Source of the DNA: a virus
Taxonomy: Duplodnaviria > Caudoviricetes
Length of the DNA: 40,215 nucleotides
Virus record (IMG/VR): IMGVR_UViG_3300037524_000872
Coordinates: 1 to 40,215 of that record
Direction: 5' to 3' (one strand)
The notes beneath the pieces are model-generated. The model did no database searches. It was not told the DNA's origin and saw nothing but the letters and a program-made list of their open reading frames with translations. A program made the position numbers and the translations under genes. This document shows positions 5,062 to 21,134 of the stretch, piece by piece (the stretch's first letter is position 1; the number at the start of each line of letters is the position of its first letter).

Positions 5062-5076
5062 GTTGAAAACTCCTGT

Positions 5077-6141
5077 TTAATTGTCGTCGGTGGTTTCGAG
5101 GCCATCAATGGCCTCGGCGAGTGCGGCTTCCGTGCCGCCCCCTTCGATGAACTTGTTCACGCGGTTCGATGATGCCGTCACGGTCTTCTTGGGCGCTGCA
5201 GGCTCTCGCCGGCTGGGCGCGGGCTCGGATGGCACGCGCGGCGGCGCGGGTGTCCGCTCGTCGGGCTTCTTGCCCTTGGCCGCGATCTTCTCGCGCAGGG
5301 CCTTTTCCCCGGCCAGCAGTTGTCCGATGATGACGTTGACGAAGGGGTGGCTCTTCAGCCCGGGGAACGATTTCAGGATGCGCTCGCGCGCCTGGCTCGC
5401 CTCGCTCTTCGCGTCGAGCAGTTCCGGGTAGTGTTCCCGCACGAGGATCTGGTCGACCTTCGCGCGCTGCCTCACGCGCTCGCGCGCCCTCGGCAGCTCT
5501 TCCTGGCGCAGGCGCTGCACCTCGCGGTGACGCGCCCGCACTTCCTTCGCGGAAAACGTTGTCTGCCCGTCCTCGCTCTCGTAGCCGTCCAGGTTCTCAA
5601 ACAGCACGTCTTCCTGCTGCTTCAGCTTGGCGTCGAGCGTTTCCAGCTCCGCCTCCGTTTCGGCCATGTGGATCGGGCTCGCGCCCCGCGGAAGCTCCGC
5701 GGGCTCGCTGGTTCCCCGCCTGGCCAGCTCCGCCTCGGCCTTCTCCGCGCGCGCCACGGCGGCCTTCTCGGCCTCCTTGCCCCTCGCGTGGATCTTGTCG
5801 ATGCGCCGCTGGATCTTCGCCGCCAGCTCCGGGCCGATGCCCTTGATCTTGTCGATCGGCTGGCTCTCGTCGTCGTCAGCCCCAGGCTCCCCGTCGGTGC
5901 TGCGCGCCGGGTCCGGATCCTTCTCGCCGCCGGCTCCGTCGCCGTCCGGCTTGAAGTTCACCAGGTCCCCGACCCCTGCCCCTTCGGCGAGTCCCTGCAA
6001 CTCGCTGATTTCCGTGTCGGTTTCTTCTGCACCCCCGCGAGCCTCTTGCCCCGGTTCGTTCACAGCAGGATTCAGTGCGGCGCCGGGTTCCGGCTCCGCC
6101 ACCGCGGCCGCTGAGGCGCCGCCTTTGGTCGGGTCATTCAT
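5077..6141 (-). CDS. Capsid scaffolding protein (354 aa)
   Basis: GAGGG RBS before ATG 6141. Acidic disordered N-terminus and coiled coil (KIQRRIDKIHARGKEAE). Lies upstream of the MCP. Confidence 0.8.
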   Translation of the reverse strand: MNDPTKGGASAAAVAEPEPGAALNPAVNEPGQEARGGAEETDTEISELQGLAEGAGVGDLVNFKPDGDGAGGEKDPDPARSTDGEPGADDDESQPIDKIKGIGPELAAKIQRRIDKIHARGKEAEKAAVARAEKAEAELARRGTSEPAELPRGASPIHMAETEAELETLDAKLKQQEDVLFENLDGYESEDGQTTFSAKEVRARHREVQRLRQEELPRARERVRQRAKVDQILVREHYPELLDAKSEASQARERILKSFPGLKSHPFVNVIIGQLLAGEKALREKIAAKGKKPDERTPAPPRVPSEPAPSRREPAAPKKTVTASSNRVNKFIEGGGTEAALAEAIDGLETTDDN

Positions 6142-6900: not shown

Positions 6901-9075
6901 CTAGCCCTCCTTCTCCACGCCCACGCGTCCCGTCTCGGCGTTCTTGATCTGCTGCACCTGGAAGTCCAGGTATTCGAGCCGCTTCAGGAGCAGGCCCTTC
7001 TTCCGCTCGCTCAGCTCCGCGAGGAAGTCCGGCTGCGTCTGCACCATCCGCGTCACCGCCTGCAGGCGCAGCGGGAAGTTCAGGCCCTCCGGCGGCATCG
7101 GCGGCTCAATGCCGGCCGCAATCAGCGCCAGGTTCTTCAGCTCGTCGTCCAGCTCGCGCTGGTCCGCCGCCTGCGGGTCGGAAAGCACATCGTCCGCCAG
7201 TTCGGGGTCGTACATCGCCAGCGCGCGCCGCACGAGCTTGTCGTATTGCAGCGTCTGCCGGCGGTCCAGCGGAACGATCACGCTGCCCACCGTCTTCGCA
7301 AAAGCCTCGATATAGGCCGGGTCCATCGTCCGCGCGTCAAAGGTGAGCGTCAGGTCGATCATGCTGCGCAGTTCGGACGCGCTCGGCTTGCTCGGCCACT
7401 TCTTCCCCGTGATTCGCTCCAGCTCCCCGCGGCTCAGGTAGTGGATCGCGCACTGCACCGCCATCGTCAGCGCCGTCGCCAACCGGTCCAGGAACTGGTC
7501 CACCATCATCTGCCGCAACACCACCGCCAGGTCGTTCGGGTTCTCCGGATCCATCCGACCCATGTACTCGTTGACCTGCCTCCGGATTTCGCCGATCTGC
7601 GCCGCGCTCACCTGCGGAGGCGGCGGCGGCTGGAACCAGCGGTATTCACCCGGCCGGCGCTCCGGTATCTGCCCCAGGCTCCGTATCACCAGCGGCGTCT
7701 TCGGCCGGTTGTGCGGCGTCATAATCGGCGGAAGCCCGCCGATCACCGCCACGTCGTCCACCACATCGTGGTGGGTCTTCATGCTCGCCTGTTGCGTCAT
7801 CAGCAGTCCGGCCACGCCACGGCTGTCCCACAGGCGCGATGTGATGATCTCCCGCGGAAACTCGACAAACGGCTGGCCCATGTGCGGGTAGTCCAGCAGC
7901 TCGCGCCCCTTCGCCGTCTCGTCCGTCACCAGGTGGTGGAACGTCGTCATGTACACGCCGGGCACCCCGTCGTCGTTCACCGCCCGCTGGAAAGCCGTGA
8001 TCACCTGGAACCGGTCGCGATACTTCTCGCGCGTATCCGAACGCGCGTTCGTCAGGCTGTAGTCGGAAGTCACCTTGTCCAGCAGGCTGTAGTCCGGGAA
8101 CGCCGCTTCGCTTTCCCGCTTCAGCACTTCCTCGATGAACTCGGGTGACCACCCCTCGGAATGTTCCTTCTCGCGGACCTCCGATGCCGTCAGGGTCTGC
8201 ACCATGTACACCGCTCGGGCCCGCTGCAGGTCCGTCGGTGTGTTCGACGGAAACAGCACATCTTCAAACAGCTTCAGCGCAGCCAGGCGCGGCATGCGGC
8301 ACTCCGTCACCATGCGCGGGAAGGTCGCCTTGCCCGTCTCGCGAAACTCGCGGATCATCTCCCGCGCGCGGCCGTCGCTCTTGATCACCTTCACCATCGT
8401 CCGCAGCAGCGCGATCGCCTCGTCCTCGCGCTCGGGATTCTGGAGCATGTCGAGCAGGTCCGTTATTTCCTGCTTCTCCAGTTTGCGCTGCAGGAGCTGT
8501 GAAATCACTCCGGCCAGTTCCTCCAGCGTCACCGTGGTCAGCTCCAGCCCGCGGCGCTCGTACCAGTACACGTACAGCACGCCAATGCCCGGGTCGTCGC
8601 CCTCCATGTAGTTCGCCAGCTTCGTCAGCTCCGTGCGGTACAGGCAGCGCCATTGGCTCTTGATGATGAAGCGCATGAGGATCTTCACGCGCGCCGCCAG
8701 GCCCGTGTCGTTGATCTCCATGCCGAACAGACCGGGCGCGGCCCGCGTCGCCGCCGTCACCAGGATCGCCACGCGCTCGTTGATCACCGTGTCGGCCAGG
8801 CGCACCCGTTGGTCGCTCGCACCCTCGAACGGGAAGGGCTCCTTGCCGATCACTTCCTTGCGTTTCTTCCCGTCCGGGCTCTGCCCGTCCCAGATGCAGA
8901 AACGCGTCTCTTCCGCGTGCTTGCGCTGCTCGAAGAGCCCGGCGCTCGCGTCCGTCCAGATTTGGTCGATGTCCTTGTTCAGCGCGTCGATCAGCTCCTT
9001 GGTCGGATTCTTCTCTCCGCCCCCGTCGCCCTCGACCTGCTCCAGCTCCGCGCGCGTCTGCTCCTGGTCGTTCAT
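6901..9075 (-). CDS. Portal protein (724 aa)
   Basis: Size and position between TerL and scaffold. PFPFEGASDQRVRLAD and DSRGVAGLL motifs. Confidence 0.85.
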   Translation of the reverse strand: MNDQEQTRAELEQVEGDGGGEKNPTKELIDALNKDIDQIWTDASAGLFEQRKHAEETRFCIWDGQSPDGKKRKEVIGKEPFPFEGASDQRVRLADTVINERVAILVTAATRAAPGLFGMEINDTGLAARVKILMRFIIKSQWRCLYRTELTKLANYMEGDDPGIGVLYVYWYERRGLELTTVTLEELAGVISQLLQRKLEKQEITDLLDMLQNPEREDEAIALLRTMVKVIKSDGRAREMIREFRETGKATFPRMVTECRMPRLAALKLFEDVLFPSNTPTDLQRARAVYMVQTLTASEVREKEHSEGWSPEFIEEVLKRESEAAFPDYSLLDKVTSDYSLTNARSDTREKYRDRFQVITAFQRAVNDDGVPGVYMTTFHHLVTDETAKGRELLDYPHMGQPFVEFPREIITSRLWDSRGVAGLLMTQQASMKTHHDVVDDVAVIGGLPPIMTPHNRPKTPLVIRSLGQIPERRPGEYRWFQPPPPPQVSAAQIGEIRRQVNEYMGRMDPENPNDLAVVLRQMMVDQFLDRLATALTMAVQCAIHYLSRGELERITGKKWPSKPSASELRSMIDLTLTFDARTMDPAYIEAFAKTVGSVIVPLDRRQTLQYDKLVRRALAMYDPELADDVLSDPQAADQRELDDELKNLALIAAGIEPPMPPEGLNFPLRLQAVTRMVQTQPDFLAELSERKKGLLLKRLEYLDFQVQQIKNAETGRVGVEKEG

Positions 9076-9275
9076 GTTCCGCCTTTCGTCGTGCTCGTGT
9101 GCGCCACGCGGTTCGCCAGGGCCACCACCTCCGCCTCGATGAACACCGCCCGGGCCTTCGCCGTGAACCGCCTCGGCACCAGCTCCCCCGCCCGGATCAG
9201 TTTCGTCAGCGACTCATCGCTCAGCCCCAGCATCGTCCGAACCTCGCGCCTGCGCATAAATCTCGGCAAGTCCAT
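9072..9275 (-). CDS. AlpA/excisionase-like HTH protein (67 aa)
   Basis: FMRRREVRTMLGLSDESLTKLIRAGEL, with a GGGAG RBS. Confidence 0.75.
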   Translation of the reverse strand: MDLPRFMRRREVRTMLGLSDESLTKLIRAGELVPRRFTAKARAVFIEAEVVALANRVAHTSTTKGGT

Positions 9276-9310
9276 CGTGGTGTACTCCCAAATTAAGAGC
9301 TTGACAAGTT

Positions 9311-9319
9311 CTTACTAAG
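9311..9319. promoter_or_regulatory. Operator-like palindrome CTTACTAAG
   Basis: Overlaps the stop of the 56-aa ORF, upstream of the HTH and portal genes. Confidence 0.7.
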
Positions 9320-9485
9320 ATTCTTCGAGCAACGCATCCGCCATCGCCAGCGACGCATTCGCAATCAGTCGCGCCGACATGGCCATGACGTTCGCGTTTG
9401 GATTTGCCAACACCGCCTTCGCCAACTCAAGCGCGACCTTTTGCCTCATGGTCAGCCCTGTCGTCCCTCCGCGCTTCTTCTTCAT
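9315..9485 (-). CDS. Small phage hypothetical protein (56 aa)
   Basis: ATG overlaps the TerL stop. GLTMRQKVA...LAMADALL is a pattern common in small phage proteins. Confidence 0.65.
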   Translation of the reverse strand: MKKKRGGTTGLTMRQKVALELAKAVLANPNANVMAMSARLIANASLAMADALLEES

Positions 9486-11464
9486 CAGTAGCTTCCTCCT
9501 CCGATAACTTGCCCCGTCGCCTGGTCGTCCATGTAAATCGGGTCGCTCTGCAGCCACATCCAGAGCACGTCGATCAGGTCCTTGGTGGCTCCCTTGGCGC
9601 CGTCCGCGCCGGTCCAGGTTGAAAGCGCGAAGATCAGGTTGATGCACTCCTCGCTGATCACCAGGTCCGCCATGTTCAGGTATCCGACCGGCCGCTCTTC
9701 GTCATAGTCCAGCGCGTCGTTGATCGCCTGCACGGCATCCGCGAGGCTCTTGCCCGGGGCCGTCTTGAATGTAACGCCAACGTCCGCAAAGTCGGTGATC
9801 AGTGTGCTGGGCCGGTCGTTCTCAATCTTCGGGTTACTCGCGAAGCGCGCGTCTACAATCCGCTCGAAAATCATCTCCCTGGCCTTGCCGTCCTCCGCCA
9901 GTTTGATGATCCAGTCCTCTTCCCGTACATCGCTGCTTCCCTCTCCGCCGCCGCGCCCCTTCTCGTAGCTCTCCCATCCCTCCAGCCTGGCCAGCTCGCG
10001 CTTATAGCGCCAGTAGCCGAATCCGAAGCTGCGCTGCGCCGGCCCGGCTTTCCCGTCCGGATGGTTCGCGTCTCCGGGGATCGCCCAGGGGCCCGGCACG
10101 CCCACCCCGGGGATGTGGTAGTTGCCGGGCCATTCCCGGTACACCACGTGCCGCGGCTTCTCGCTGTCCGGCAGGCGGCTCCCCCAGAGCATGCAGAAAT
10201 TGCGCGCATTCGCCGGGTCCAGGATGTGGTATCGCGTCCCGCGCGCCGCCAGCTCCGCCGCGCGCTCGCGCGAAACCACGTGCACCTTCACATTGAATTT
10301 CGGGAAGCGCGCGCTCAGCAGCTTGTGGCCCAGCCCGTAAAAGCGCTCCCTCACGTGGTCCGCCGGCTTGCCCGCCATCATGTTCCAGACATTCATCGGT
10401 GTGCTGTACGGGTTATCGCTGGAGTGGAAAAACGCCACCGCCCGGATCCCCTTCGGGTCTGCAACCGCTGACGGCCGCATGACGCGCGGCACCAGTTCGA
10501 AGTTCCGGCCCTCCGGCATCTTCGGTTTCGTTTCCCCGCGCAGGATCCGCTCGATCAGGTTCTCCGGCCGGGCCCGCACGCACTGCGGCGCGCGGTTCTC
10601 CTCCTTGGCCAGCTCCATCTCCCGCAGCTCCTCGTCCGATACTCCCAGCGCCTGGTGCACATCCGGCGGCTTCCCGTCCTTCGGCAGCACATACCCCACG
10701 CTGCTCAGCACTGTTTCCGCTCCGTCCTGAAACATCCCCACCGTTTGGGTATACCCGTCCGTCGGCGTGAACGTGATCACCATGCGCCCGCCCTTTTCCG
10801 CGATGCGCAGCTCCAGCGTCTGCACCCAGTCCGGCGGGATTTTCTCGTCCGGCCATACCCAGTTCAGGTTGCCGCCCTCGACGCCTTCGATCTTCATCGT
10901 GTAGTAGAAAAAGCGCAGATTGGCATGGTTCGGGCAGGTAAACTTCCCGTCGGCAAAGCCCGTCTGCTCCTTGTAGCTCATGTACATGACGGACGATTTC
11001 TTCGTTGTCCGCCATTCCGGCGGCAGGTACTTCCAGAGCAGCGGATGTTGCCAGTCGATTGATTGGTCCTCCTTCTCGTGCAGCGCCCAGGCGCGCCAGC
11101 CCGGATTCTCCACAATCTGCCGGACCGTCCGTTTCGCCGCGTACTCCGACTTGCCGCCACGGTTCCCTCCGTTGATCAGCAGCACCTGCACCGGCTTCTT
11201 GAACCCCATCGCCTCGCGCACGCGGCGCGCCATGTCGGCGTCCACCCAGGGGAACCCCAGCAGGCAGTCGCAGACCGTCCACATGGGAGGCTCCCACCCA
11301 TAGCGCAGCGGATCCGTCAGCTCCTTCTGGATCGCCCGCTCGCGCTGCTTGTGCAGCCGGATATAGGCCTCATCCGCCTGACACTTATTAATCTCCGCGT
11401 AGCGCCGCACCTCCGCGATGCCGGGCACCGGAAGCACAGGGTGAGCTGTAGGCACAAACCCCAT
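9485..11464 (-). CDS. terL: Terminase large subunit (659 aa)
   Basis: Walker A GGNRGGKS, Walker B WVWPDE, motif III ITFTP, nuclease ILDPA and KDLID. GGAGGGG RBS before ATG 11464. Confidence 0.9.
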   Translation of the reverse strand: MGFVPTAHPVLPVPGIAEVRRYAEINKCQADEAYIRLHKQRERAIQKELTDPLRYGWEPPMWTVCDCLLGFPWVDADMARRVREAMGFKKPVQVLLINGGNRGGKSEYAAKRTVRQIVENPGWRAWALHEKEDQSIDWQHPLLWKYLPPEWRTTKKSSVMYMSYKEQTGFADGKFTCPNHANLRFFYYTMKIEGVEGGNLNWVWPDEKIPPDWVQTLELRIAEKGGRMVITFTPTDGYTQTVGMFQDGAETVLSSVGYVLPKDGKPPDVHQALGVSDEELREMELAKEENRAPQCVRARPENLIERILRGETKPKMPEGRNFELVPRVMRPSAVADPKGIRAVAFFHSSDNPYSTPMNVWNMMAGKPADHVRERFYGLGHKLLSARFPKFNVKVHVVSRERAAELAARGTRYHILDPANARNFCMLWGSRLPDSEKPRHVVYREWPGNYHIPGVGVPGPWAIPGDANHPDGKAGPAQRSFGFGYWRYKRELARLEGWESYEKGRGGGEGSSDVREEDWIIKLAEDGKAREMIFERIVDARFASNPKIENDRPSTLITDFADVGVTFKTAPGKSLADAVQAINDALDYDEERPVGYLNMADLVISEECINLIFALSTWTGADGAKGATKDLIDVLWMWLQSDPIYMDDQATGQVIGGGSY

Positions 11465-11712
11465 CAGCCCTGCCCCTCCTCCGCGACGCGCGCGCCAGCA
11501 AAGCGAGCACCCGCGCCTGCCTTCAACCCGCAATCAATCGTCCATGTCCCATAGCGCAGCAGTCGGACCGCCTCATCGAATTCGAGCACCTTATCCGCCA
11601 GGCGAGAGAAGTCTTCATCGCGCCCCTCGTTCTTGGCCTGTCGCATCTGGTCCCTAAGAATCCCCAGGTCCAGCTCCAGCGCATGCACCACATTGTGAAA
11701 CGGCTTCGTCAT
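11464..11712 (-). CDS. Hypothetical protein (82 aa)
   Basis: ATGA-coupled to the upstream gene and fills the gap before terL. Confidence 0.6.
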   Translation of the reverse strand: MTKPFHNVVHALELDLGILRDQMRQAKNEGRDEDFSRLADKVLEFDEAVRLLRYGTWTIDCGLKAGAGARFAGARVAEEGQG

Positions 11713-12062
11713 TCTCTCAGCCGCCTGACAGCGGGAAACCGTTTTGCGATCGCGCGAAGAAGCCTTGCCATTCCGCAGCGTTTCCACGGCTTCCCGTCGA
11801 TCGTCACGTCATACTGGTCGCAGCGCACTTCCGACTGCAGACAGACCAGGAAGTGCGTCTTCGGAGGAATCGCCGGATGCCCGCCAAGGTGCCCCTCCAC
11901 GATCCGGATCTGCACAAAGCGCAGATACTCCTTATCGACCGGCCCAGGGCCCGCCGCTAAGCGCTTCCGCTCCTTCGCCGCGTGACAATTCCGCGACCAT
12001 GTACGCGCCTTCTCCTTGCGGAGTCGCCTGTAGGTACTTGAGGCAAACGGCTTTAGCTTCAT
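11709..12062 (-). CDS. Basic hypothetical protein (117 aa)
   Basis: ATG 12062 overlaps TGA 12059, with a GGAAGGGGG RBS. Confidence 0.6.
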   Translation of the reverse strand: MKLKPFASSTYRRLRKEKARTWSRNCHAAKERKRLAAGPGPVDKEYLRFVQIRIVEGHLGGHPAIPPKTHFLVCLQSEVRCDQYDVTIDGKPWKRCGMARLLRAIAKRFPAVRRLRE

Positions 12063-12110
12063 AAAGCAGAACCCCCTTCCGTTCTGTGGTCGGCTAATAG
12101 AGTGTTCGGT
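12042..12110 (+). repeat. Degenerate attC-like site C
   Basis: R' GTTCGGT (12104-12110). Candidate R'' GGCAAAC (12042-12048). Short TTAGC/GCTAA pairing and inner GCAGAAC/GTTCTGT hairpin. Confidence 0.4.
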
Positions 12111-12385
12111 GGATTTGGAAGCGGCATCCAGTGTGTCATTCCGAGATACCGACATCGCTCGATTCCGCAGTTCGGCGGTTCGCCGGTCGCTGGGAAGAAC
12201 GTTGTGACGACTTCGCCATCCCAGCCGATAACCTCTTTGCCAAACGGCAGTGTTTTCTCAACATCGTGCCACGTCCCGAAGGCGGACACCGAACCAGTGC
12301 ATGGAGGCGTACCCGAATGGGCCGCTTCGTCGCTCGTTCCAATGCCCTCTTGATGCACGGCCGGGTCGCTCGTGTTCAGTCTCAT
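12059..12385 (-). CDS. DUF551-like protein (108 aa)
   Basis: WHDVEKTLP...THWMPLPNPP signature. ATGA coupling and GGAGG RBS. Confidence 0.75.
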   Translation of the reverse strand: MRLNTSDPAVHQEGIGTSDEAAHSGTPPCTGSVSAFGTWHDVEKTLPFGKEVIGWDGEVVTTFFPATGEPPNCGIERCRYLGMTHWMPLPNPPNTLLADHRTEGGSAL

Positions 12386-12427
12386 GGTTCCTCCCGCCCA
12401 TTCGGGCCGCTCATGCTTTTGTTCGGC
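12288..12427 (+). repeat. attC-like site B (140 bp)
   Basis: R'' ACCGAAC. Left arm GCATGGAGGCGTACCCGAATGGGC pairs with right arm GCCCATTCGGGCCGCTCATGC, with unpaired extra bases on the left arm. R' GTTCGGC. Confidence 0.72.
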
Positions 12428-12711
12428 GGCTCCGGCAGCGGCATCCAATACGGTGCCTCGGACAGATCGACGCGATCCATGCCGCCATTGTCCACGACCT
12501 CGAAATGCTGCTCCTCGTCGCAGTCGCACAACTGGGCCATGCGAATCTGGCACTGGCCGCTCCCTCCGAATCGGCTCGTGAAGATCAACACGCGATCCCA
12601 ATGCGTTGGCAGTGTCTCGCTCGTATTCCTCCACGCCGTCCCACAGACGCTTGGAGGCAACGGCGAACCCGAAGCGGGTCCACCGTTGCTGTCTTGCATC
12701 GGGTCACTCAT
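12382..12711 (-). CDS. DUF551-like protein (109 aa)
   Basis: WRNTSETLP...YWMPLPEPP signature and ATGA coupling. Confidence 0.75.
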   Translation of the reverse strand: MSDPMQDSNGGPASGSPLPPSVCGTAWRNTSETLPTHWDRVLIFTSRFGGSGQCQIRMAQLCDCDEEQHFEVVDNGGMDRVDLSEAPYWMPLPEPPNKSMSGPNGREEP

Positions 12712-12738
12712 CGCCGTGCCTCAAGCTTTCGGTTAGGC
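12638..12738 (+). repeat. attC-like site A (101 bp)
   Basis: Degenerate R'' GTCCCAC. Left arm GCTTGGAGGCAACGGCGA pairs with TCGCCGTGCCTCAAGC, leaving two extrahelical bases. Canonical R' GTTAGGC. Confidence 0.7.
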
Positions 12739-13028
12739 TTTACAGTTTCCCGCACGCGCACGGCTTTGAATATCCAGCGGGAACAAATGGCGTGTCCCTG
12801 ATATTTTCGGTGCTGCGCTCGGCACCAGTCGCGCGCTGCCTGGCGGGACGTGAACAGTAATAGGCGCGACGGCTCTCCGATGTATGCCGCCGAACGTGGT
12901 TCGTGCCACGACTCACCGATCAGTAAGTTTTTGAGGCTCGCACCCCAGAGCACGCGATCCCATCCTCGCGGCCCAATATTCGCTTGCACGCGACAAGCGG
13001 CCCGCCACGGCTTTGCTGCCTTCGTCAT
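12708..13028 (-). CDS. Hypothetical protein (106 aa)
   Basis: GGAG RBS before ATG 13028. LLFTSRQAARDW motif. Confidence 0.6.
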   Translation of the reverse strand: MTKAAKPWRAACRVQANIGPRGWDRVLWGASLKNLLIGESWHEPRSAAYIGEPSRLLLFTSRQAARDWCRAQHRKYQGHAICSRWIFKAVRVRETVKPNRKLEARR

Positions 13029-13066
13029 TACTTTTCTCCGGTTGCCCGCTCGTGAACCGGTGGGTT

Positions 13067-13360
13067 TCACGGCCAGCACTCCGTCAAAACCCGATACCCG
13101 CCCTCGTTCGCCATTTGCCACTCCATATTGGTCGACACGAAATGGAGCCACCCGGACACGTCAACCCACTGCGCATAAAGCCACGGCGTCCACTCGACGC
13201 GATACCGCTGATCAATCTGACCAAACCACGTGATACGGTGATGGTGCGGCGCAGCAGGAAGCTCGGGCGCGAGCGTTGTCATTCGTCTCGGCCGGTCCTG
13301 CTCCACCGGCGTGGCGCAGCCGGCCAGGATGAACATGACCAGTGCGGACCACCTGCTCAC
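13067..13360 (-). CDS. Putative lipoprotein (97 aa)
   Basis: GTG overlaps the DHH stop. MSRWSALVMFILAG-C lipobox. Confidence 0.55.
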   Translation of the reverse strand: MSRWSALVMFILAGCATPVEQDRPRRMTTLAPELPAAPHHHRITWFGQIDQRYRVEWTPWLYAQWVDVSGWLHFVSTNMEWQMANEGGYRVLTECWP

Positions 13361-14220
13361 GCCGGCACCTCGGGCTCGCGCACCAGGAATTCGCGAGGCA
13401 TTTCCGTGGTGATAAAGCCCGCGGCCCCCTTGTGGCCTCCCCCGCCGCGGGCCTTGCAGATCGCCCCACAGTCCACATCCTCGTTGTCGCTGTACACGCT
13501 CACGCGCCACTGACCGTCGCGCCGCATGTGGAACATGACCATGGCCGCGTGCCGCTCGCGGGCATACACGCTTCGGAACGATTCGCTGTTCCCGTGCCCG
13601 TTCATCGCGATCACGCGCAAACCGCCCAGGCGCGTCTCGAAAGCGTTGTCCGCTTTCTTCGCGTCGCCGTGCCGCTTGTACTTCAAGATCAGTTGGCCAT
13701 TCTCGACAATCCGCTCCACGTCGGGCCGGTGATCCTTAAAAAGCTCCTGCCAGAGCCCTCGGTCCGCCCCGCCGCGCGGATCCAGGTCCAGCACCTTCGC
13801 CCCAAACTGAAAAGGCAGAACCTCCGCGTCGCCGTGGTCCCATACGTCATACCGCCCCAACAGCCGAACCGCTCTCGGCACCGGCAAGTTGGGCATGAAA
13901 TATCCCCACGCCAATTCACACGCCGCCAGTCCGACCGTCCGCACGCCGGGGATAATCAGGCCAGCCCGGGCCGCATCCTCGATCGCCGTTTTGTGGTGGT
14001 CGATCCACGTCAACAGGCACAGCGCCGACAACTGCCCCATCTCGCTCGCGGGCAAGCTCACGTCCACCATCACCACATCCTCGCCCGGCGTGATCGCGGC
14101 CCACGGAAACCTTTTCCCGTAGTCGTATCCGATCATCTCGCACTCCGGGAATGCGTGCTTCACAATCGCCCCGCTGCAGTGCCCGTCCAGATCAGCCTCG
14201 TGATAAAAGCATTTCATCAT
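13357..14220 (-). CDS. DHH/DHHA1-family phosphoesterase
   Basis: YHEADLDG, VMVD, WIDHHKT and GGGGHKGAAGF motifs. Confidence 0.92.
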   Translation of the reverse strand: MMKCFYHEADLDGHCSGAIVKHAFPECEMIGYDYGKRFPWAAITPGEDVVMVDVSLPASEMGQLSALCLLTWIDHHKTAIEDAARAGLIIPGVRTVGLAACELAWGYFMPNLPVPRAVRLLGRYDVWDHGDAEVLPFQFGAKVLDLDPRGGADRGLWQELFKDHRPDVERIVENGQLILKYKRHGDAKKADNAFETRLGGLRVIAMNGHGNSESFRSVYARERHAAMVMFHMRRDGQWRVSVYSDNEDVDCGAICKARGGGGHKGAAGFITTEMPREFLVREPEVPA

Positions 14221-14568
14221 TCACTCCCGCTCAAGTTGATCTTCGGAAGAACTTACTAAGTCTTGAGAATCTTCGCAAGCACTTACTAAGTCCTGCGCCG
14301 CGATCGCCTCGCCGGCCCCATTGACCGTGCGCGCCTTGATGCCGCCGCCGTCCGCTCTCCGCGCGGCGCGCTCCTTCTTCAGTTCGCGCTCCATCTGCGC
14401 CGCCTCCTCCATCGTGCCGGCCAGCCCCACGACAAAATATCCGTCCCCGTCGCCGGCCAGGCACTTCTGCCGGTTCATCGCGATATGCTCGCGTACCGAC
14501 TGTGTCCGGAATGCTCCCTTGGGGTGCCACAACACAAACCAGCTCTCCAGTGTCAGTGCCATCGTCAT
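14221..14568 (-). CDS. Hypothetical protein (115 aa)
   Basis: Coupled to the helicase stop. The C-terminus is encoded by the operator-containing tandem repeat. Confidence 0.65.
   Translation of the reverse strand: MTMALTLESWFVLWHPKGAFRTQSVREHIAMNRQKCLAGDGDGYFVVGLAGTMEEAAQMERELKKERAARRADGGGIKARTVNGAGEAIAAQDLVSACEDSQDLVSSSEDQLERE
14239..14298. promoter_or_regulatory. 30-bp tandem duplication carrying two ACTTACTAAGT operator copies (cores 14252-14260 and 14282-14290)
   Basis: ATCTTCGGAAGAACTTACTAAGTCTTGAGA / ATCTTCGCAAGCACTTACTAAGTCCTGCGC. Confidence 0.7.
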
Positions 14569-15974
14569 CCCTCCGGTCGGTTCGGGTCCTTCTCGTCCAC
14601 GGGCGGATACGCAAATTCGGGGTGGGCCCGGTCGAAACGGAAATAGTGCGGGCGCAGCCAGAACTCCAGCGCCGCCGTCTCGCCGTCCTGGTTCTTCTGC
14701 ACGTCGATCAGCACCGGCCGGCGCTGTTTCGTCTCAAGCTCCAGCTCCTTGTCCACGTTCGTCTTGTAGGCAAACGTCACCGTGGTCGCGTCCTCCTCCA
14801 GGCTGCCGCTCTCCTTCAGGTCGGACAGCCTCGGAACGCGAGGCTTTTTGCCTTCCTTCTCCAACCCGCGTGAAAGCTGCGATAGCAGCAGTCCAGGAAT
14901 ACCAAGCTCCAGCGCCAGCGCCTTCAGCGTCTTCGTGACATACTTCACCTCGCGCCGCAGATCCCATCCCTTCCCCGCCTTCGCAATCTCCGGCAGCGTG
15001 GCGTGGTCCAGCGTGAATGCCTGGATGTCGAAGCGGATCTTCATCGCGCGGATCCATGAGCAGATCGCCCCGATCTCGCGCAGCTCCGTGATGTACATCG
15101 GCCACCCGGCAATCACCTTCTTTGCCTCGGCAATGCGCGCCAGATCCGCCTGCGTCGCATACCCGAATTTCAGCTTTGGCGCCGACACGCCAGCCAGCCT
15201 GCAGGCGTCGCGCATCAGCAGCCGCTTCTTCGTGATGTCCAGGGACGCCCGCGCCACTGGGATCCCGCACTCGCACCAGTACGACGCGATGGACCCCTCC
15301 AGCGATGTCTTGCCGGCGCTCGGCCTGCCGGCGAGCAGGTGCAGCCCGGGCTCAAACCCGCCGATCACGTGGTTGTAGTCGCGCCACGGCGTCTGCAGCC
15401 CGGAAACCGGCACCGGCCTTTTTGAGTAGAAAGCCTCGTGCGCTGCGCGCCAGCTCGTTTCAAGCTCGTCCATGAGCTGCAAATTCGACTTCTCGCGCGT
15501 CACGTCTTCCACCAGGTCGCTGAACGCCTGACCGGCCGTCCGAATCACTGCATCCCCTCGCTCGCACACATACGCCTCGGAAATCAGTTGGCGGGCCTCG
15601 TCGATCACGCGCCGCGCCAGGTATTTCTGGCGCACGATGTCGCAGTAAAATTCGGCGTTCGAGTCCGTTGGGGTCGCATCAATCAGCCGCTCGACATAGG
15701 CGTTTCCGCCCACCTGGTCCAGAATCCCGGCGTCGCGCAGATACTGCGTCGTCAGCAGCAGGTCCACGGGCTTGCCGTTGGCGAACATGTCGACCACGGC
15801 CTGGAACAGTTGCCCGTGTGCCTTCACGTGGAACATCTCGGCTTTCATCCGAAACGTCGCCAGCGCCATAGGGATTACCCTGACGGCATCCAATAGCGCC
15901 GACCCCAGCACCGCGCGCTCAGCCTCCGCGCTGTGCGGTGGCACGCGCTCCACGCTCACCGCGTCCGCTATCAC
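14565..15974 (-). CDS. dnaB: Replicative DNA helicase, DnaB-like
   Basis: PPHSAEAERAVLGS, Walker A AGRPSAGKTS, LLSQLSR, PRLSDLKESGSLEEDA and KNQDG. Confidence 0.95.
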   Translation of the reverse strand: MIADAVSVERVPPHSAEAERAVLGSALLDAVRVIPMALATFRMKAEMFHVKAHGQLFQAVVDMFANGKPVDLLLTTQYLRDAGILDQVGGNAYVERLIDATPTDSNAEFYCDIVRQKYLARRVIDEARQLISEAYVCERGDAVIRTAGQAFSDLVEDVTREKSNLQLMDELETSWRAAHEAFYSKRPVPVSGLQTPWRDYNHVIGGFEPGLHLLAGRPSAGKTSLEGSIASYWCECGIPVARASLDITKKRLLMRDACRLAGVSAPKLKFGYATQADLARIAEAKKVIAGWPMYITELREIGAICSWIRAMKIRFDIQAFTLDHATLPEIAKAGKGWDLRREVKYVTKTLKALALELGIPGLLLSQLSRGLEKEGKKPRVPRLSDLKESGSLEEDATTVTFAYKTNVDKELELETKQRRPVLIDVQKNQDGETAALEFWLRPHYFRFDRAHPEFAYPPVDEKDPNRPEG

Positions 15975-16843
15975 GTCGCCACCTCGCCGCCCATCGGGAC
16001 AAACCGCCTCTCCTTCGCGCCCTCACCCCCGCCGTCTTTTTTTTGCGCCTCCGCCTCCCGGCGCTGCTCAAGCCTGGAAACCACCTTCCTCAACCACGGC
16101 AAAGCCGACCCGACACTGCCGGCCACCCCGGCCAATTCCAGCACCAGCTCGCGGAAATTGTCCTGCGCCTGTATTTGCGCCAGCGGGTACTCCTGCGCCA
16201 CCTTGGCCAGCATCTCGTAGCGAAGCTGGTTCATCTTCCCCGTGGCCTTCAGCGCCCGAAAGGCGTCGCGGTAAGTACCGTTCACCCCCTCGAACTCTTC
16301 CTCCGGTTCCGGATCCTCCGAACCGTCGCGACCCTCGCCCTCGCTCAGAGAGTGGGTCTGGGTATGGGTATGGGTATGGGTATGAGAGGCGGGACTAATC
16401 TCGACAAGAGGCGCCATTTGTCGCGACTCAGTCGCGACTTGTCCCGACTTTTGTTTCCTGCGCGTGCCATGCCCGAGAGCATATTGTAAGCCCTTGTCTG
16501 ACAGATACTTGTCGGCAGCCTCGTCGGAATGATCGTGCCAGTCGTGAATGTACAGGCGGCAAGTGTCGTGACGATCAATCCATCTTGTCGCGACAAGTGC
16601 CTCTATCAGTCGCGACTCCGTCGCGACTTGTCCCGACTTGTCGGGATACATCGACACGAAGTCGCGCCAACCACACTCTTTTTCGATCACGGCATCAGGC
16701 CACTTGCCGATGTCGCCCTGCGGCGCATACCTTGCCGACCAGTGCCAAAGCTTTTCAAGGATCCCCACCGCAACCACGGCCGGGATACCCAGGGCAACGG
16801 CCAACATGAGTGTTTTCGGGTGTTCTGGTGTTCCGCGTTTCAT
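15971..16843 (-). CDS. Phage replication initiator (replisome organiser-like)
   Basis: HPKTLML...GILEKLWHW...IHDWHDH N-terminal domain, HTHTHT linker, internal iterons, upstream of DnaB. Confidence 0.75.
   Translation of the reverse strand: MKRGTPEHPKTLMLAVALGIPAVVAVGILEKLWHWSARYAPQGDIGKWPDAVIEKECGWRDFVSMYPDKSGQVATESRLIEALVATRWIDRHDTCRLYIHDWHDHSDEAADKYLSDKGLQYALGHGTRRKQKSGQVATESRQMAPLVEISPASHTHTHTHTQTHSLSEGEGRDGSEDPEPEEEFEGVNGTYRDAFRALKATGKMNQLRYEMLAKVAQEYPLAQIQAQDNFRELVLELAGVAGSVGSALPWLRKVVSRLEQRREAEAQKKDGGGEGAKERRFVPMGGEVAT
16325..16647. repeat. Iteron cluster / probable replication origin
   Basis: GTCGCGAC at 16325, 16420, 16431, 16587, 16609 and 16620, with variants at 16441, 16565, 16630 and 16640. 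A 31-bp block is duplicated at 16420-16450 and 16609-16639. Confidence 0.7.
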
Positions 16844-16875
16844 AATATGCCCGCTTATGCCCGCCTTTCTTTTTG

Positions 16876-17286
16876 TTACCAGCGCCCATACCCACGCGGG
16901 CAGCGCCTCGCCAACTCGTACACCCCCGCCGTCTCCGTCTCGCGTACAGGGATCGCCATACCCGCGATGAAATTCACTGACGTACTGACACGGACCAGCA
17001 CCTTTTTTCCGTCCAGGGAGGCTTCCAGCACGCGCGGATTGGGAAATTTTCGCAGCACGCGCGCCTCGACCTGGGCCGGGGTCTTTTTTTCAAATTTAGA
17101 CGGCTCACCGGCCAGCCCCGACACTTCCAGCAGTCGCTGGATACCCGCGGCGCTGTAGAGCACCTTCACCCCTTGGTGCACCCAGTCAACGCCCTCCTTG
17201 AGGACGTTCTTTCTGGCCTCCGCCAGCACCGGCTGCGCAACATTCATTTGCTTCGCGACCTCTCGCTCCTCATGGTCAAAGCTCAC
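16876..17286 (-). CDS. Hypothetical protein, possible N-terminal DNA-binding domain (136 aa)
   Basis: GTG 17286 with AAGGGGG RBS. LKEGVDW...VLYSAAGIQRL. Confidence 0.65.
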   Translation of the reverse strand: MSFDHEEREVAKQMNVAQPVLAEARKNVLKEGVDWVHQGVKVLYSAAGIQRLLEVSGLAGEPSKFEKKTPAQVEARVLRKFPNPRVLEASLDGKKVLVRVSTSVNFIAGMAIPVRETETAGVYELARRCPRGYGRW

Positions 17287-17541
17287 AAGACCCCCTTTTG
17301 CTACAAATCGTTCGGGCCCGTACTCATTGATGACCGCCGCCCCCAGCGCGCAAACGCGACCCCCCCCGCCCCCCTTTGCGGCCGCGCGCGCCCGATCCGC
17401 ACGACCTGACCGCGCCCGTGTCCGCCAGCCGCACGCCCAGGCCCGAAGCCCTTTTCCTTCCGGCAAGCGTCGCCAACATGTAGCACCGTGCCTGTATCCA
17501 CCTGAAAACATTGGTTAATGTCGGAATACGCACAAGACGCC

Positions 17542-18186
17542 CTATCCTGCATGAGGCTCCTGGCCCTGGTCGGTCGGCGCCGCGGATCCAGGCGCCGGCG
17601 GCCCGACGACCTCGATCACCTCGGCCTCGATCGCCCCCTTTTCCCCGCCGCTTCCCGCCTCCAAACCAGTCACCAGCTCTCGCATCATCCGCTCAAAGTC
17701 GGCCACGCTCGGCTCCGTTCGGTCGATGGTTTCGATCCGCGCAGTCACTCCACCAGAGAGCAACTCCGACTTCTCCACCAGGATGCCGTGGATCACCGCC
17801 AGGTCGCGCGCAGGTATCTTGGCGCGCTTGTCTGGGTCGACCAGCGCCTCCAGGATTCCCTCGACGCAGAGCTGCGCACCACGACGAGCCAGGGCGGCGA
17901 TCCTTGTTTTAAGTATCTCTACTTGGCCGCGCTCACGATCCTGCACGGCCATCACGGTGTTTCCGCTGCACTGCAGGAGAGCGCCGATGCGCAACACGCC
18001 AAGCCCTTCGGCCGTCAGCGCGATCACAGCGTTGTATTTCTCCGGATGCTTCTGGAAAAAGCGCGCCGCGGTGAATTCGGGGTTGCGCGGGTCTGCTTCC
18101 GCTTCAGCAAAAAAAGACGCCGGCATCTGGTCGCTGGTCAATAGCGGCAACTGCTGGCCGCTGCGCTCGATGAGGCTGTCCGTCAC
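17542..18186 (-). CDS. Putative terminase small subunit / HTH protein
   Basis: HTH-like GLGVLRIGALLQCSGNTV and RDLAVIHGILVEKSELLSGGVTARIE oligomerisation-like motif. GTGA overlap (alternative ATG at 18207). Confidence 0.55.
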   Translation of the reverse strand: MTDSLIERSGQQLPLLTSDQMPASFFAEAEADPRNPEFTAARFFQKHPEKYNAVIALTAEGLGVLRIGALLQCSGNTVMAVQDRERGQVEILKTRIAALARRGAQLCVEGILEALVDPDKRAKIPARDLAVIHGILVEKSELLSGGVTARIETIDRTEPSVADFERMMRELVTGLEAGSGGEKGAIEAEVIEVVGPPAPGSAAPTDQGQEPHAG

Positions 18187-18527
18187 GGCGTGATTGACTC
18201 CAGCCATCGGTTTACCGCGCTGGCCGGCACCAGCACCGACTTGCCGGCGCGACGCGTCGGGTAGATGCCCTTCGCGCCCTTGGACTCGGCCCCAAGTTTC
18301 ACCTGCTGCCACAGATACCGGACACTGACGCGCAGGCGCGCGGCCAGCTCGGGGATGCGCAGGTGTTCTTCGACAAAAGGTTGGCCGGGCACGCCATGCG
18401 GGGTTGATTCACCACCGCGGCCGGTGACTAACCGCACCGCCCTGGACGATTCTTGCACGGCCGGGGCAAGGGCATCTTCCCCACGTCTACTGGCCGCATG
18501 GTGCGTTGAGCGTCCCGTAGTCATCAA
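18183..18527 (-). CDS. Excisionase-like winged-HTH protein
   Basis: HLRIPELAARLRVSVRYLW...VLVPASAVNRWLE. Confidence 0.7.
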   Translation of the reverse strand: MMTTGRSTHHAASRRGEDALAPAVQESSRAVRLVTGRGGESTPHGVPGQPFVEEHLRIPELAARLRVSVRYLWQQVKLGAESKGAKGIYPTRRAGKSVLVPASAVNRWLESITP

Positions 18528-18799
18528 GCCGCCAGCCCTCGGGCACCACCGAATTCCAACTGAACAGCCGGCGCGGCAGAAAACCGCGTACCCCAGCCAG
18601 AACGAACAGCGTCAGCCCACACAAAAAAAGCAGCGCAGGGCCCGACGTAGGCACGATCCTTCGCGCTCCAGATCAATACCGTGCCCGCAGGACACCAGGG
18701 CGAAGCGCGCAGGGTCTGAACCAAGGCCGGCAGGCCATCACGCGCGAGCCAACGGTCAAGAATCGCGCCGACGTGATCCTCGGGGCTTACCTGATCCAT
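18524..18799 (-). CDS. Hypothetical protein (91 aa)
   Basis: GAGGTG RBS and coupling to the downstream gene. Confidence 0.6.
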   Translation of the reverse strand: MDQVSPEDHVGAILDRWLARDGLPALVQTLRASPWCPAGTVLIWSAKDRAYVGPCAAFFVWADAVRSGWGTRFSAAPAVQLEFGGARGLAA

Positions 18800-18808
18800 G
18801 ACGACACC

Positions 18809-19054
18809 TCACGAATGAGTATCACGACGCCGACGACCGCCTGGAGCAGCGCCAGGATTCTCCACCGCATAAGTTCCGCGTCTCTCGGCAACAAGCGCGA
18901 CATGTGCATGGTCTTCCTCCAGGTGGTCTTCAAGTACCCGGCGCACGATTGCGCTGGCGGATACACTGATCTTCGTGAGTTTCGACAGCTCGCGGGCCTT
19001 CCGCTTGATGTTGCGCGCGAGCGTTTCCGGCAAATTCAGCGTTAACGATGCCAT
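18809..19054 (-). CDS. Ribbon-helix-helix regulator, first gene of the lytic operon (Cro analogue, 81 aa)
   Basis: MASLTLNLPETLARNIKRKA...SASAIVRRVLEDHL: alternating beta strand then two helices. Confidence 0.72.
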   Translation of the reverse strand: MASLTLNLPETLARNIKRKARELSKLTKISVSASAIVRRVLEDHLEEDHAHVALVAERRGTYAVENPGAAPGGRRRRDTHS

Positions 19055-19061
19055 GAGTTTC

Positions 19062-19090
19062 AGAGTATGCATACACTTACTAAGTGTCAA
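19062..19090 (-). promoter_or_regulatory. Leftward sigma70-type promoter with operator in the spacer
   Basis: TTGACA-17-TACTCT. The palindrome ACACTTACTAAGTGT (19073-19087) covers the spacer and part of the -35. ATG lies 7 nt after the -10. Confidence 0.8.
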
Positions 19091-19109
19091 CCACCTATCT
19101 CAAATAATC

Positions 19110-19137
19110 TTTACCGCTGGCCCGGGCGGCGTATATT
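19110..19137 (+). promoter_or_regulatory. Rightward promoter for the repressor candidate
   Basis: TTTACC-16-TATATT. ATG lies 7 nt after the -10 with no RBS. Confidence 0.6.
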
Positions 19138-19144
19138 AAGACCT

Positions 19145-19417
19145 ATGCCAACAAACCCCATCGGCCGAAACACCAAGAATGTGGGGGTCAACCTTCCCAA
19201 AGACTTGATTTCCGACCTGGACGTTCTGTGCGAAAAATCAGGCGTCTCTCGCAATCGGTACATCCGGACCGTCCTCGAAGCCGCGGCGGCCAACAACTGG
19301 CAGGCAGTCGAAGAGCGCCTGCTGCTGCGCGAGACGGCGGACGCAAAGCTGCACATCCCCGAACCAGCCAAGCACGCCGGCCGCGTGATCTACCGCATGA
19401 AAAAGAAACAGAAGTGA
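19145..19417 (+). CDS. Ribbon-helix-helix (CopG/Arc-like) regulator, candidate immunity repressor (90 aa)
   Basis: KNVGVNLPKDLISDLDVLCEKSGVSRNRYIRTVLE. Divergent from the lytic operon. Confidence 0.8.
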   Translation: MPTNPIGRNTKNVGVNLPKDLISDLDVLCEKSGVSRNRYIRTVLEAAAANNWQAVEERLLLRETADAKLHIPEPAKHAGRVIYRMKKKQK

Positions 19418-19433
19418 ACATCGCCCTGCGCCG

Positions 19434-20564
19434 TTAGCCCTCGATGTCGACGGGGTCCGGATGCCGCTTCAAGTCTGCATAGTAATCCCACGTGACCTGC
19501 AGGGTATCCCCGAGCCAGTCTGCAGCCACTTCCACGCCGTAGCGCGTGTACCACTCCGAACCGATCAGCTTGCGTAGCTCGTGCGCCGCCTTCGGGTACT
19601 CTGCCCGCGTCCAGCCGATTGAACGCATCCAGGCCGCAAACTGGCGCGTAACCAGGTCACGACGGGCCCGCGGCGATCCGCCAGGAAGCATGAATTCATC
19701 GCCATCGCGCCGCAGCGCGACCAGTCGCTCGTAAACCTGCCGGCCCATCGGCACCGCGCGGTCGCGTGATTTGGGCTCGAAATCAGCGCGCCGCATGATT
19801 TGCATCAGTCGCTTGTCGCCGTCCTCGCGGATCCAGCCCCAGGTCGCCCCAGCGGCTTCCTTCGCGCGCATACCCAAGTAGTAGCACAAAAGAAAAACAC
19901 CAAACAGCGCCGGGGAATCCGCTTCCAGCGCGCGGGCGCCGGCCAGCGTTGCGTCAACCAGATCCCGCGGCGGAAACCGGTACTTGTTCTTCTGGGCCCG
20001 CACCGTCTCGCACTTCAAAAACTCCGAAAGGTTCGGAAGTTCCAGGCGGTCCTCCATGTCCCGTAGCGCCCATCGCGCAAAGACCGCGCGCGCATTTCTG
20101 ATCGTGCCAGCCGCCGTCCTGCGCGCGCGCTCGCGCGCAGCCGCATCCTCCGGATACGACTCGACAAAGCGCTGCGTGTAGTCCTTGAGCAATGCCCTGG
20201 TCAGAACAGAAACGGGGTGGTCCTTGGCCTTGCCATCATGCACGAACGCCACCAGCTTCTGAAGCTGCGCGACGTAGCCGGCCGCGGTCGATGCCCGCGG
20301 CTTGCCTGTTTCCGCGCGATGGCGCGCCGCCAGATCAAGATAAACCGCGCACACATCGCCGATCGTTGCCATCGGCCGGCGCGACTTCAGCGCTTCCACA
20401 TCCTCCCATCGCTGGCCTTGCGCATGATCAAGGATTATCCGAGCCCTGGCCTTGGCCACGGCCTGGTCGCCGGTGTCCAAGCTCTGGTAGATGCGGCAGC
20501 CCCGCACCGTTGCCCGGATGTAATAGACGCCGTGGCGCTTCTGCAGGTTGCGCAGGGTCTTCAT
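19434..20564 (-). CDS. int: Tyrosine integrase (376 aa)
   Basis: Arm-binding-like N-terminus (LQKRHGVYYIR...SLDTGD), GMRAKE, PKSR, HELRK, LGD and catalytic-type DYYA. ATGA-coupled start. Confidence 0.9.
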   Translation of the reverse strand: MKTLRNLQKRHGVYYIRATVRGCRIYQSLDTGDQAVAKARARIILDHAQGQRWEDVEALKSRRPMATIGDVCAVYLDLAARHRAETGKPRASTAAGYVAQLQKLVAFVHDGKAKDHPVSVLTRALLKDYTQRFVESYPEDAAARERARRTAAGTIRNARAVFARWALRDMEDRLELPNLSEFLKCETVRAQKNKYRFPPRDLVDATLAGARALEADSPALFGVFLLCYYLGMRAKEAAGATWGWIREDGDKRLMQIMRRADFEPKSRDRAVPMGRQVYERLVALRRDGDEFMLPGGSPRARRDLVTRQFAAWMRSIGWTRAEYPKAAHELRKLIGSEWYTRYGVEVAADWLGDTLQVTWDYYADLKRHPDPVDIEG

Positions 20565-20971
20565 GCGCGCACCCCCTGAATCTGCGAAACCGGCGCCGGG
20601 GTGAAATTGAAATCCAGCTCGATGTTCTCCTCCGTGAGTTCCGCGATGCTGATGTAGCCCATCTCGCCGCCATCGCCGAACAGATCCGCCAGTCCGAAGG
20701 CCTGCAACTGCCCTTCTCCGGCGCGCTCCACATCCTTCTCCGTAATCCAAAAATCGGCGCTTCCCCCGAAATAGTGCAGGTAGGCTACCGGATCCGCATT
20801 GCCCTCCTGCTCGTAGACGGCCGGCATCAGCTTGATCCGAAGCGCCAACCTCTCCACCAGGTCGACAAAGAATTCCCGCTCTTCACCGCGCAGGCACTCC
20901 GCCAGCGCCGCCATTTGCGACGGACCAACGAACTTCCGAAGCAACTCCATATTTGCGCCCAGATTACTCAT
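20561..20971 (-). CDS. DUF2958-like protein (136 aa)
   Basis: YEQEGNADPVAYLHYF...WITE...FGLAD...EMGYISIAEL...ELDFNFTP. AAGGGG RBS. Confidence 0.7.
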   Translation of the reverse strand: MSNLGANMELLRKFVGPSQMAALAECLRGEEREFFVDLVERLALRIKLMPAVYEQEGNADPVAYLHYFGGSADFWITEKDVERAGEGQLQAFGLADLFGDGGEMGYISIAELTEENIELDFNFTPAPVSQIQGVRA

Positions 20972-21054
20972 GTGGATCCCCTTTCCAGTGATACGACTTT
21001 GATACACATGTAACCGGATATACCGTGCGCGTCAATGCAAGAGTATGCAATAAT

Positions 21055-21063
21055 CTTAGTAAG
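21055..21063. promoter_or_regulatory. Operator-like palindrome CTTAGTAAG
   Basis: Lies between divergent TTGACG -35 candidates (minus 21035-21030, plus 21095-21100). Confidence 0.7.
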
Positions 21064-21094
21064 TTCTGGCGGCTTGCGCTTAGGTGCGCTACTA

Positions 21095-21123: not shown

Positions 21124-21134
21124 CAGGGGTCAGC

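Follow-up and report, generated by a model that had tools for sequence, protein, structure and literature searches.

How does an array of integron-type cassettes come to stand in a phage operon that encodes no integron integrase (IntI), with its genes reading against their own recombination sites, and by what means could it still exchange them? The question is raised by the stretch of DNA analysed here (the window), a whole virus record of 40,215 bases with a completeness estimate of 94%. The window's main genes lie on the minus strand, and the array is located between a DnaB-like helicase upstream (14565..15974, minus strand; PF03796, E 3.8e-42) and the terminase large subunit downstream (9485..11464, minus strand; homologues named 'phage terminase large subunit-like protein'). 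An earlier note on this DNA had described two clear attC sites and one degenerate one, and had proposed that a host IntI acts on them in trans. The sites are labelled A, B and C from left to right, and the 'site C' of that note is site A here.

An Rfam search of positions 9000-22000 returned nothing at E <= 1, a search of the minus strand from 11400 to 19500 for sigma-70-like promoters, which is a weak test, found none, and a search for the phage's host did not identify it. GC skew at fourfold sites is +0.34 on the coding strand, which is therefore G-rich, a weak hint of replication direction only. Further afield, positions 21534-30245 (minus strand) encode a 2903-aa protein with an internal RadC-like JAB domain (E 2e-29), which probably makes it a large polyvalent protein. 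At the end of the gene at 14221-14568, positions 14239-14295 hold a pair of 27-nt direct repeats that lie 30 nt apart, and a weaker third copy at 9298-9324 precedes an AlpA-like gene; these repeats are possibly protein-binding sites.

Recombination sites and cassettes in the window

Candidate attC sites were scored with three covariance models built for this analysis, which are not the IntegronFinder or HattCI models and whose E-values are rough. R1 comprises 66 gammaproteobacterial attC, R2 comprises 69 sites of terminase relatives with the window excluded, and R3 comprises 74 matches from bacterial and class 1 integron loci, with rows chosen and aligned by R2. R1 matched nothing anywhere in the window; it also missed obvious phage sites and was judged to be biased. 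With R2, five attC of class 1 integrons reach 23.8-38.9 bits, and 82 bacterial-integron loci yield 39 matches, all on the cassette strand. The L-box pairs covary, with 88% of cells paired against 28-40% when the pairing is slid, in an alignment that was fitted to that structure. In 80 bacterial intI loci, a geometric scanner placed 58 sites on the strand of the cassettes and 4 on the opposite one. Of 83 bacterial scanner matches, 14 were dropped as false by eye and three more were omitted from A1.

Site B (12288..12427, plus strand) is the only intact attC in the window, with R'' at 12288-12294, L'' at 12300-12307, L' at about 12409-12415 and R' at 12421-12427. It is the top window match of both R2 (33.3 bits, E 5.6e-6) and R3 (19.4 bits, E 0.012). 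A covariance-model check of the kind that the earlier note had advised, run with our own models, thereby gave a divided result, with matches by R2 and R3 and none by R1. The fold of site B, on either strand, comprises an R box and an L box with a 4x4 unpaired spacer between them. One extra G sits on the left arm of the plus strand, in L'', nine positions after AAC, which identifies the plus strand as the attC top strand; the bottom strand of site B is the coding (minus) strand. The case for site B as an attC is made by the covariance models and an independent copy, not by its whole-site folding energy, which is unremarkable (z -1.2 and -1.4), or by the scanner, whose single match in the window is site B but at chance level (1.28 matches per shuffled 40 kb, and at least one in 42 of 60 shuffles).

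The independent copy stands on a metagenome contig (L357), where it is identical to site B at 121 of 140 positions (86%) with unrelated flanks (11/40 and 8/40), and forms part of a four-site array in which it precedes a different antisense gene. Moreover, the N-terminal peptide encoded by site B is the only part common to five otherwise unrelated proteins. The recombinogenic fold probability computed for site B with our own constraint set is 0.20 for the bottom strand versus 0.055 for the top strand, with medians of 0.28 for 81 phage sites and 0.33 for 69 bacterial sites; in the passages of Loot 2017 available to us, values above 0.1 are treated as recombinogenic. In an arm-sequence matrix derived from R1's sites, the left arm of site B ranks first on the plus strand and its right arm lies outside the top ten. 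Exact DNA patterns taken from the window sequence were found in no viral contig, in none of the sequences of a first metagenome scan and once in a second.

Site C (12638..12738, plus strand) is an attC-derived hairpin with intact L boxes and R', whose R'' reads GTCCCAC and has no AAC. The hairpin itself is strong (z -4.1 and -2.9), R2 matches it only partially (8.4 bits, E 2.7), and with a computed recombinogenic fold probability near zero it is predicted to be non-recombinogenic. There is no independent copy of site C to compare, because a homologue search with the cassette-2 protein gave no match. One gene further on, site D (12971..13070, plus strand) is tentatively read as a decayed attC; it gives partial matches to R2 (12.9 bits, E 0.25) and R3 (8.2 bits, E 5.6) and does not fold as a single hairpin. 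A standard pipeline would probably report one attC here, given one site above 20 bits by R2 and two damaged ones.

The remaining site differs in kind. The stretch at 12042-12110 that had been described as a degenerate hairpin shows no hairpin (z 0.5 and 0.15) and no match with R1, R2 or R3, and its reading as a degenerate attC was rejected in favor of an attI-like core. This core, site A (12092..12110, plus strand), reads GGCTAAT - 5 nt - G|TT, with the G at 12104, and is a half-site with one arm only. Among the 897 GTTs of the window it ranks first (12.5 vs 6.2) under a matrix of 13 phage first junctions, which is small and includes the doubtful rows L301 and L242, and sixth under a matrix of 20 bacterial attI. 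The first cassette junction of relatives, taken as the complement of the first attC's R'', could be located in 14 of the 15 arrays that lie upstream of the terminase and in 2 of the 6 that lie downstream; several of these junctions read L box - 5 nt - G|TT, and a few resemble missed attC arms. The closest relative (G001) has the core of site A too, and in G017 and G029 this core precedes intI by about 30 nt, compared with an intI-attI spacing of 209-337 nt in 20 bacterial junctions. An attI core next to the start of intI is found in G017, G029 and G006, not in the window. A Shewanella attI quoted in the portion of Qi 2023 (PMC9892861) available to us ends as site A does. Judged by its letters, 12042-12110 is likely an attI and not a degenerate attC.

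As such, the earlier inventory of two clear sites and one degenerate one is only partly upheld: site B is intact, but site C lacks the AAC of its R'', site A is not an attC, and site D had been missed. Folding of both strands, also proposed in the earlier note, bears out the geometry of B and the strong hairpin of C, but not an exceptional energy for B or any hairpin at A. Only attI and site B are predicted to be usable in the window, C and D having probably decayed with distance from attI.

These sites delimit three cassettes, all with their top strand on plus. Cassette 1 (12105..12421, 317 bp) ends in site B and carries a 108-aa DUF551 gene (12059..12385, minus strand; PF04448, E 2.8e-4 on a longer ORF), for which site B contains the ribosome-binding-like site, the start and the first ~32 codons, and site A the tail and stop. 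Cassette 2 (12422..12732, 311 bp), with G|TT at 12421 and 12732, ends in the damaged site C and carries a 109-aa DUF551 gene (12382..12711, minus strand; PF04448, E 2e-5; phrog_924, E 1.2e-8), which starts inside site C and has its tail and stop inside site B. Cassette 3 (12733..13064, 332 bp) ends in the decayed site D, whose R'' (GCCCAAT) is complementary to the R' of site C (GTTAGGC) at 5 of 7 positions, and carries a 106-aa gene of an unnamed family (12708..13028, minus strand), which starts inside site D and stops inside site C. All three genes lie on the minus strand, antisense to the attC top strand, as had been recognized before. Each starts in the loop of its own attC and stops within the neighbouring site, and at sites A, B and C stop and start overlap as ATGA. 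The complementarity between one R' and the next R'' that the earlier note had pointed out is likewise present: in cassette 1, the R' remnant GTTCGGTG (12104-12111) complements the R'' CACCGAAC (12287-12294). Within the window this across-cassette match is a single case, and the R' of site B itself already gives pairs at 3 of the 4 outer positions.

The two DUF551 genes score 22.1 and 25.8 bits with PF04448, above the gathering cut-off of 22 bits, and share the C-terminal motif W-M-P-L-P-x-P-P-N. Read in reverse complement, the Asn codon of this motif gives the GTT box, at 12104 as at 12421, and both boxes are contained in a 28-nt direct repeat (82% identical) at 12103 and 12420. Among 121 random viral DUF551 ends, only 2 have AAC after the motif. 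At 59 viral loci chosen for DUF551 with AAC, the scanner gave attC-like matches antisense to the gene 33 times and sense 14 times, with 5 antisense and 0 sense matches beginning at the gene end. Most viral DUF551 ends with AAC are not attC junctions, because only 5 of the 59 carried a complete attC by the scanner. The cassette-3 gene has 247 homologues. Homology to it is mostly confined to the part between the boxes: of the 150 best alignments, 142 begin no earlier than residue 18, past the R'' of site D, and 142 extend no further than residue 101. By eye, members of this family occur both bare and with attC-like N- and C-terminal extensions (P0137, P0138, P0149, P0155 and P0173 versus P0133-P0135 and others).

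The position directly after the attI-like site, which intI occupies in IntI-encoding relatives, is taken by a conserved 117-aa gene (11709..12062, minus strand), whose ATG overlaps the stop of the cassette-1 gene (ATGA) and which has no match in NCBIfam. This small gene is shared with G001, where the gene at the equivalent place is 33% identical (E 7e-10); by eye, a similar-looking gene with an A-K/R-E-R-K-R-L stretch starts 21-31 nt after the attI-like site in L298, L322 and L303. A TIGR02249 profile search found no IntI in the window record, in agreement with the earlier note. The note was also right about the phage tyrosine integrase (19434..20750, minus strand; phrog_1, E 8e-20): it is not an IntI, being 18-20% identical to IntIs in the alignment and having no insertion before H-x-x-R, the IntI-specific marker. 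The true start of this integrase is probably near 20565, because a phrog_5203/DUF2958-like gene (20561-21007, minus strand) overlaps the listed start of the ORF. With no IntI and with reversed genes, the window is not a complete integron, and it is only borderline a CALIN, that is, a cluster of at least two attC within a few kb without IntI.

Polarity, crossover and the intI slot in related phages

The reversed polarity is not peculiar to the window. Across 80 terminase-relative loci, the scanner placed 93 sites opposite to and 25 along the terminase strand. After 12 of these loci were omitted as seemingly redundant, R2 found 99 sites in 19 of the remaining 68, 98 of them opposite, a result that holds partly by construction since 69 are its training sites; 16 of the 68 loci hold a CALIN by R2, again partly through training sites. 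R3, in eight chosen loci, gave 61 of 62 matches antisense. By contrast, 17 of 18 bacterial control cassettes are sense. Strand calls by longest ORF are noisy in the phage arrays and gave 68 of 90 antisense. Antisense arrays also occur downstream of the terminase, additionally or instead (L267:7778-12374, L299:10491-11158, L310:5328-7286, L287 and L283); there are 14 sites in L267, and the two arrays of L299 have attI-like cores that are nearly identical.

The same arrays carry the signature of crossover at G|TT that had been proposed for the window. Of 90 adjacent pairs, 74 have an R'' that perfectly complements the R' of the previous site, and 12 have one that complements the R' of its own site; permutation gave a mean of 5.3 and a maximum of 14. 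This count covers only pairs 60-900 nt apart with canonical boxes, with five R2 matches omitted and two scanner matches added. Bacterial controls gave 15 of 18 across the cassette versus 4 of 18 within the site. In addition, two loci share a methyltransferase-like cassette (the name is our reading of the sequence; 89% identity) that begins at the same G|TT in both; it follows an attC in L308 and the attI-like site in L322. The comparison of related phages that the earlier note had advised thereby shows one cassette beginning at G|TT in two different positions. A breakpoint count in which 36 of 60 alignment ends lay within 8 nt of a box, against 7% for random positions, was discounted because most alignments cover the attC only.

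In the closest relative, G001 (terminase 62% identical), the equivalent place between DnaB and terminase is occupied by three attC and by genes that differ from those of the window, in a reading that assumes that the two ends of its record join. Its linear record (G001:C1) begins and ends at its attI-like G|TT junction (L351 end, L350 start), with an 8-nt overlap; this assembly break could reflect different first cassettes in the population. Contigs of sequencing runs revealed no excision joint at any G|TT, a result that counts neither for nor against excision, since rare variants are lost from contigs and runs X1 and X2 may be the source.

The slot behind the attI-like site occurs in relatives with an intact intI, with an internally deleted intI, or with none. 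IntI exceeds the TIGR02249 cut-off in 2 of 32 phage records, many of which are fragments; these are G017 and G029, whose complete phage integrons (L313:445-2595 and L127:660-3363, respectively) have antisense cassettes that read towards intI. In G006, 27 nt separate the attI-like site from an internally deleted intI, beyond which lies the terminase. This remnant (L272:1437-1850, also in L271) fuses the N-terminal part to the C-terminal H-x-L-R-H...Y part in one open frame. The complete relatives G013 and G019 and the 94%-complete G005 have no IntI, yet they hold long, mostly perfectly matched arrays. Because relatives hold intact, internally deleted or no intI behind the attI-like site, the platform is likely phage-borne and its enzyme likely lost later, a direction of loss and not gain that we infer from these states. 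Virus Rctr41k (L359, KX853513) has at 4680-5678 an IntI-like gene, annotated xerD and 36% identical to the IntI of G017, followed by methyltransferase and small genes; it was set aside as a comparison, as its R2 matches are only weak (best 14.3 bits).

Proposed mechanism and alternative explanations

With moderate confidence, we favor a model in which the locus is an integron-type array of reversed polarity, with a likely attI and three single-gene cassettes, in a lineage that has likely lost its IntI and in which cassette gain and loss would now depend on IntI provided in trans by a host or a co-infecting phage. IntI would recombine the folded bottom strand of the attC of a circular cassette with the double-stranded attI at G|TT, a mechanism of insertion described in the accessible part of PMC8946536. 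A newly inserted gene would become the last of the replication-gene operon and would be read from an upstream phage promoter, not from a Pc beside intI. Each attC would carry both the stop codon of the gene upstream and the start codon of the gene that belongs to it, joined as ATGA, so that swapped genes would stay translationally coupled. The gradient along the array, with B intact, C damaged and D decayed at growing distance from attI, fits an order of insertion at attI, and the damage to two of the three attC-type sites speaks against current activity. The earlier suggestion of a host IntI acting in trans agrees with the absence of IntI here, but the intI of G017 and G006 makes the platform likely phage-borne and another phage a possible source as well. 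A host enzyme using site A is disfavored because non-cognate attI/IntI pairs are described in PMC8946536 as generally inefficient.

A broader version of this model is tentative and, on balance, doubtful. It holds that phages run a mirror-polarity cassette economy of their own, in which ordinary phage genes become cassettes by gaining an attC that also supplies their translation start. The replication operon would house the attI platform, phages could do without an intI of their own, as a public good that they share or obtain from the host, and the reversal would keep the recombinogenic strand on the lagging-strand template. Loot 2017, in the excerpts available, reports more excision when the bottom strand is the lagging-strand template; speculatively, the reversal would put the recombinogenic strand on that template while the genes remain co-directional with replication.

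The alternative that survives best, though we consider it unlikely, is that the array is frozen: it was built while the lineage had IntI and persists only since its sites carry the start and stop codons of the genes. The decay of C and D, the lack of IntI in a record estimated to be 94% complete and the ATGA overlaps, which are a coding reason to keep the sites, all agree with this explanation, as do runs X2 and X3, which show no other letters over the parts covered by their own contigs. Against it, site B and a copy on another gene agree at 86% of positions, the L-box stems of site B are kept, the attI core is conserved, and the IntI-less relatives G013, G019 and G005 retain long arrays in which most matches are perfect.

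It is very improbable that ordinary host cassettes were captured by chance, whether through a host IntI or through illegitimate recombination, and took their orientation from the insertion. Such capture is suggested for some phage CALINs in the passages of Qi 2023 (PMC9892861) available, the sites do belong to the bacterial attC family, and phage CALINs of canonical polarity exist (TJE1). However, polarity in the phage arrays is fixed relative to each cassette's own attC, whereas 17 of 18 bacterial cassettes are sense; the genes are of phage type (DUF551) and start inside their own attC; and the attI is of a phage type, with intI about 30 nt away in relatives versus 209-337 nt in bacteria.

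It is also highly unlikely that a different enzyme, either the phage's own tyrosine integrase or an Xer-like one, recombines these sites. The window does encode a tyrosine integrase, and 30 of the 32 phage records have no full IntI, though many are fragments. Yet that integrase lies 7 kb away and has no IntI insertion, the site geometry is that of IntI substrates, and relatives with the same site family carry a true IntI beside the array.

Finally, an artefact, in which a tandem DUF551 duplication, W-M-P-L-P-x-P-P-N codons that mimic R' boxes and chance GC-rich hairpins combine, is barely tenable: the 82% identical 28-nt repeat at 12103 and 12420, the weak folding z of site B, the chance-level scanner result and the negative R1 search all point that way, but AAC after the motif is rare (2/121), site B is found again, bordered at R'' and R', on unrelated genes, the long arrays of relatives carry the crossover signature, and the L357 copy together with the L308/L322 cassette effectively refutes it.

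If the favored model of a reversed-polarity array holds, a phage family varies its accessory genes by integron recombination, with a polarity and a translation design absent from bacterial integrons, and keeps attI after the loss of intI. It would also provide testable material on how integron cassettes are made, to our knowledge an open question. Under the broader version, the genesis of cassettes could be traced in these phages, because gene families occur both bare and as cassettes (DUF551 and the cassette-3 family) and one attC is found on several unrelated genes. The favored model would also supply natural attI/IntI pairs of phage origin, and a caution that in many small phage proteins the unusual peptides at the two termini are translated attC arms. 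The window alone is a modest, partly decayed example, and the weight lies in the family comparison.

Relation to known integrons and phage cassette clusters

Clusters of attC in phages are already published, and the systematic reversal of polarity would be the new element. In the literature searched, which mostly excluded subscription papers, no paper on antisense cassette arrays in phages was found. The sections of Qi 2023 (PMC9892861) available describe 17 phage CALINs, of which six sites were tested and five recombined with IntI1; the one failure was P12002L_attC1, while P12002L_attC2 recombined. Those sections note only 'divergent' sites in P12002L, the words 'antisense', 'opposite', 'reverse' and 'in trans' do not occur in them, and a reversed polarity is not presented there as a system. 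By our placement (L358, about 29175-30060), attC1 of P12002L is antisense and attC2 sense to the neighbouring methyltransferase genes; the failure of this antisense site with IntI1 counts against present activity of the window array. Further passages cited in this analysis come from the accessible parts of PMC5371416, PMC13366799 and 10.64898/2026.09.14.751636.

The window array resembles these phage CALINs (TJE1, PH101 and P12002L, as far as described in the available text of Qi 2023) in that attC clusters occur without IntI and with small accessory and methyltransferase cassettes. It differs from them in placing starts and stops inside the sites, in retaining an attI-like site and in a layout that extends across the family; and unlike TJE1, whose genes are sense to attC, every gene in the window is antisense. 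The first gene of the TJE1 CALIN (L126:77-1519, HQ225832) ends in the DUF551 motif and is followed by a sense attC, so that the DUF551 family occurs as a cassette in both polarities.

With bacterial integrons, both class 1 and the sedentary chromosomal integrons of Gammaproteobacteria, the phage arrays share the attC architecture, the G|TT signature and an attI core of L box - 5 nt - GTT, and in the relatives G017 and G029 the array likewise points away from intI. In contrast to bacterial integrons, phage cassette genes read towards attI and intI, intI is co-oriented with them, and the window has no intI at all. Inverted-integrase integrons, known to us from portions of PMC13323075 and, for Spirochaetota, of 10.1101/2022.02.06.479319, are also an integron orientation variant; as described there, intI is flipped relative to attC, whereas in the phage relatives the arrangement of intI and attC is regular and it is the cassette genes that are flipped.
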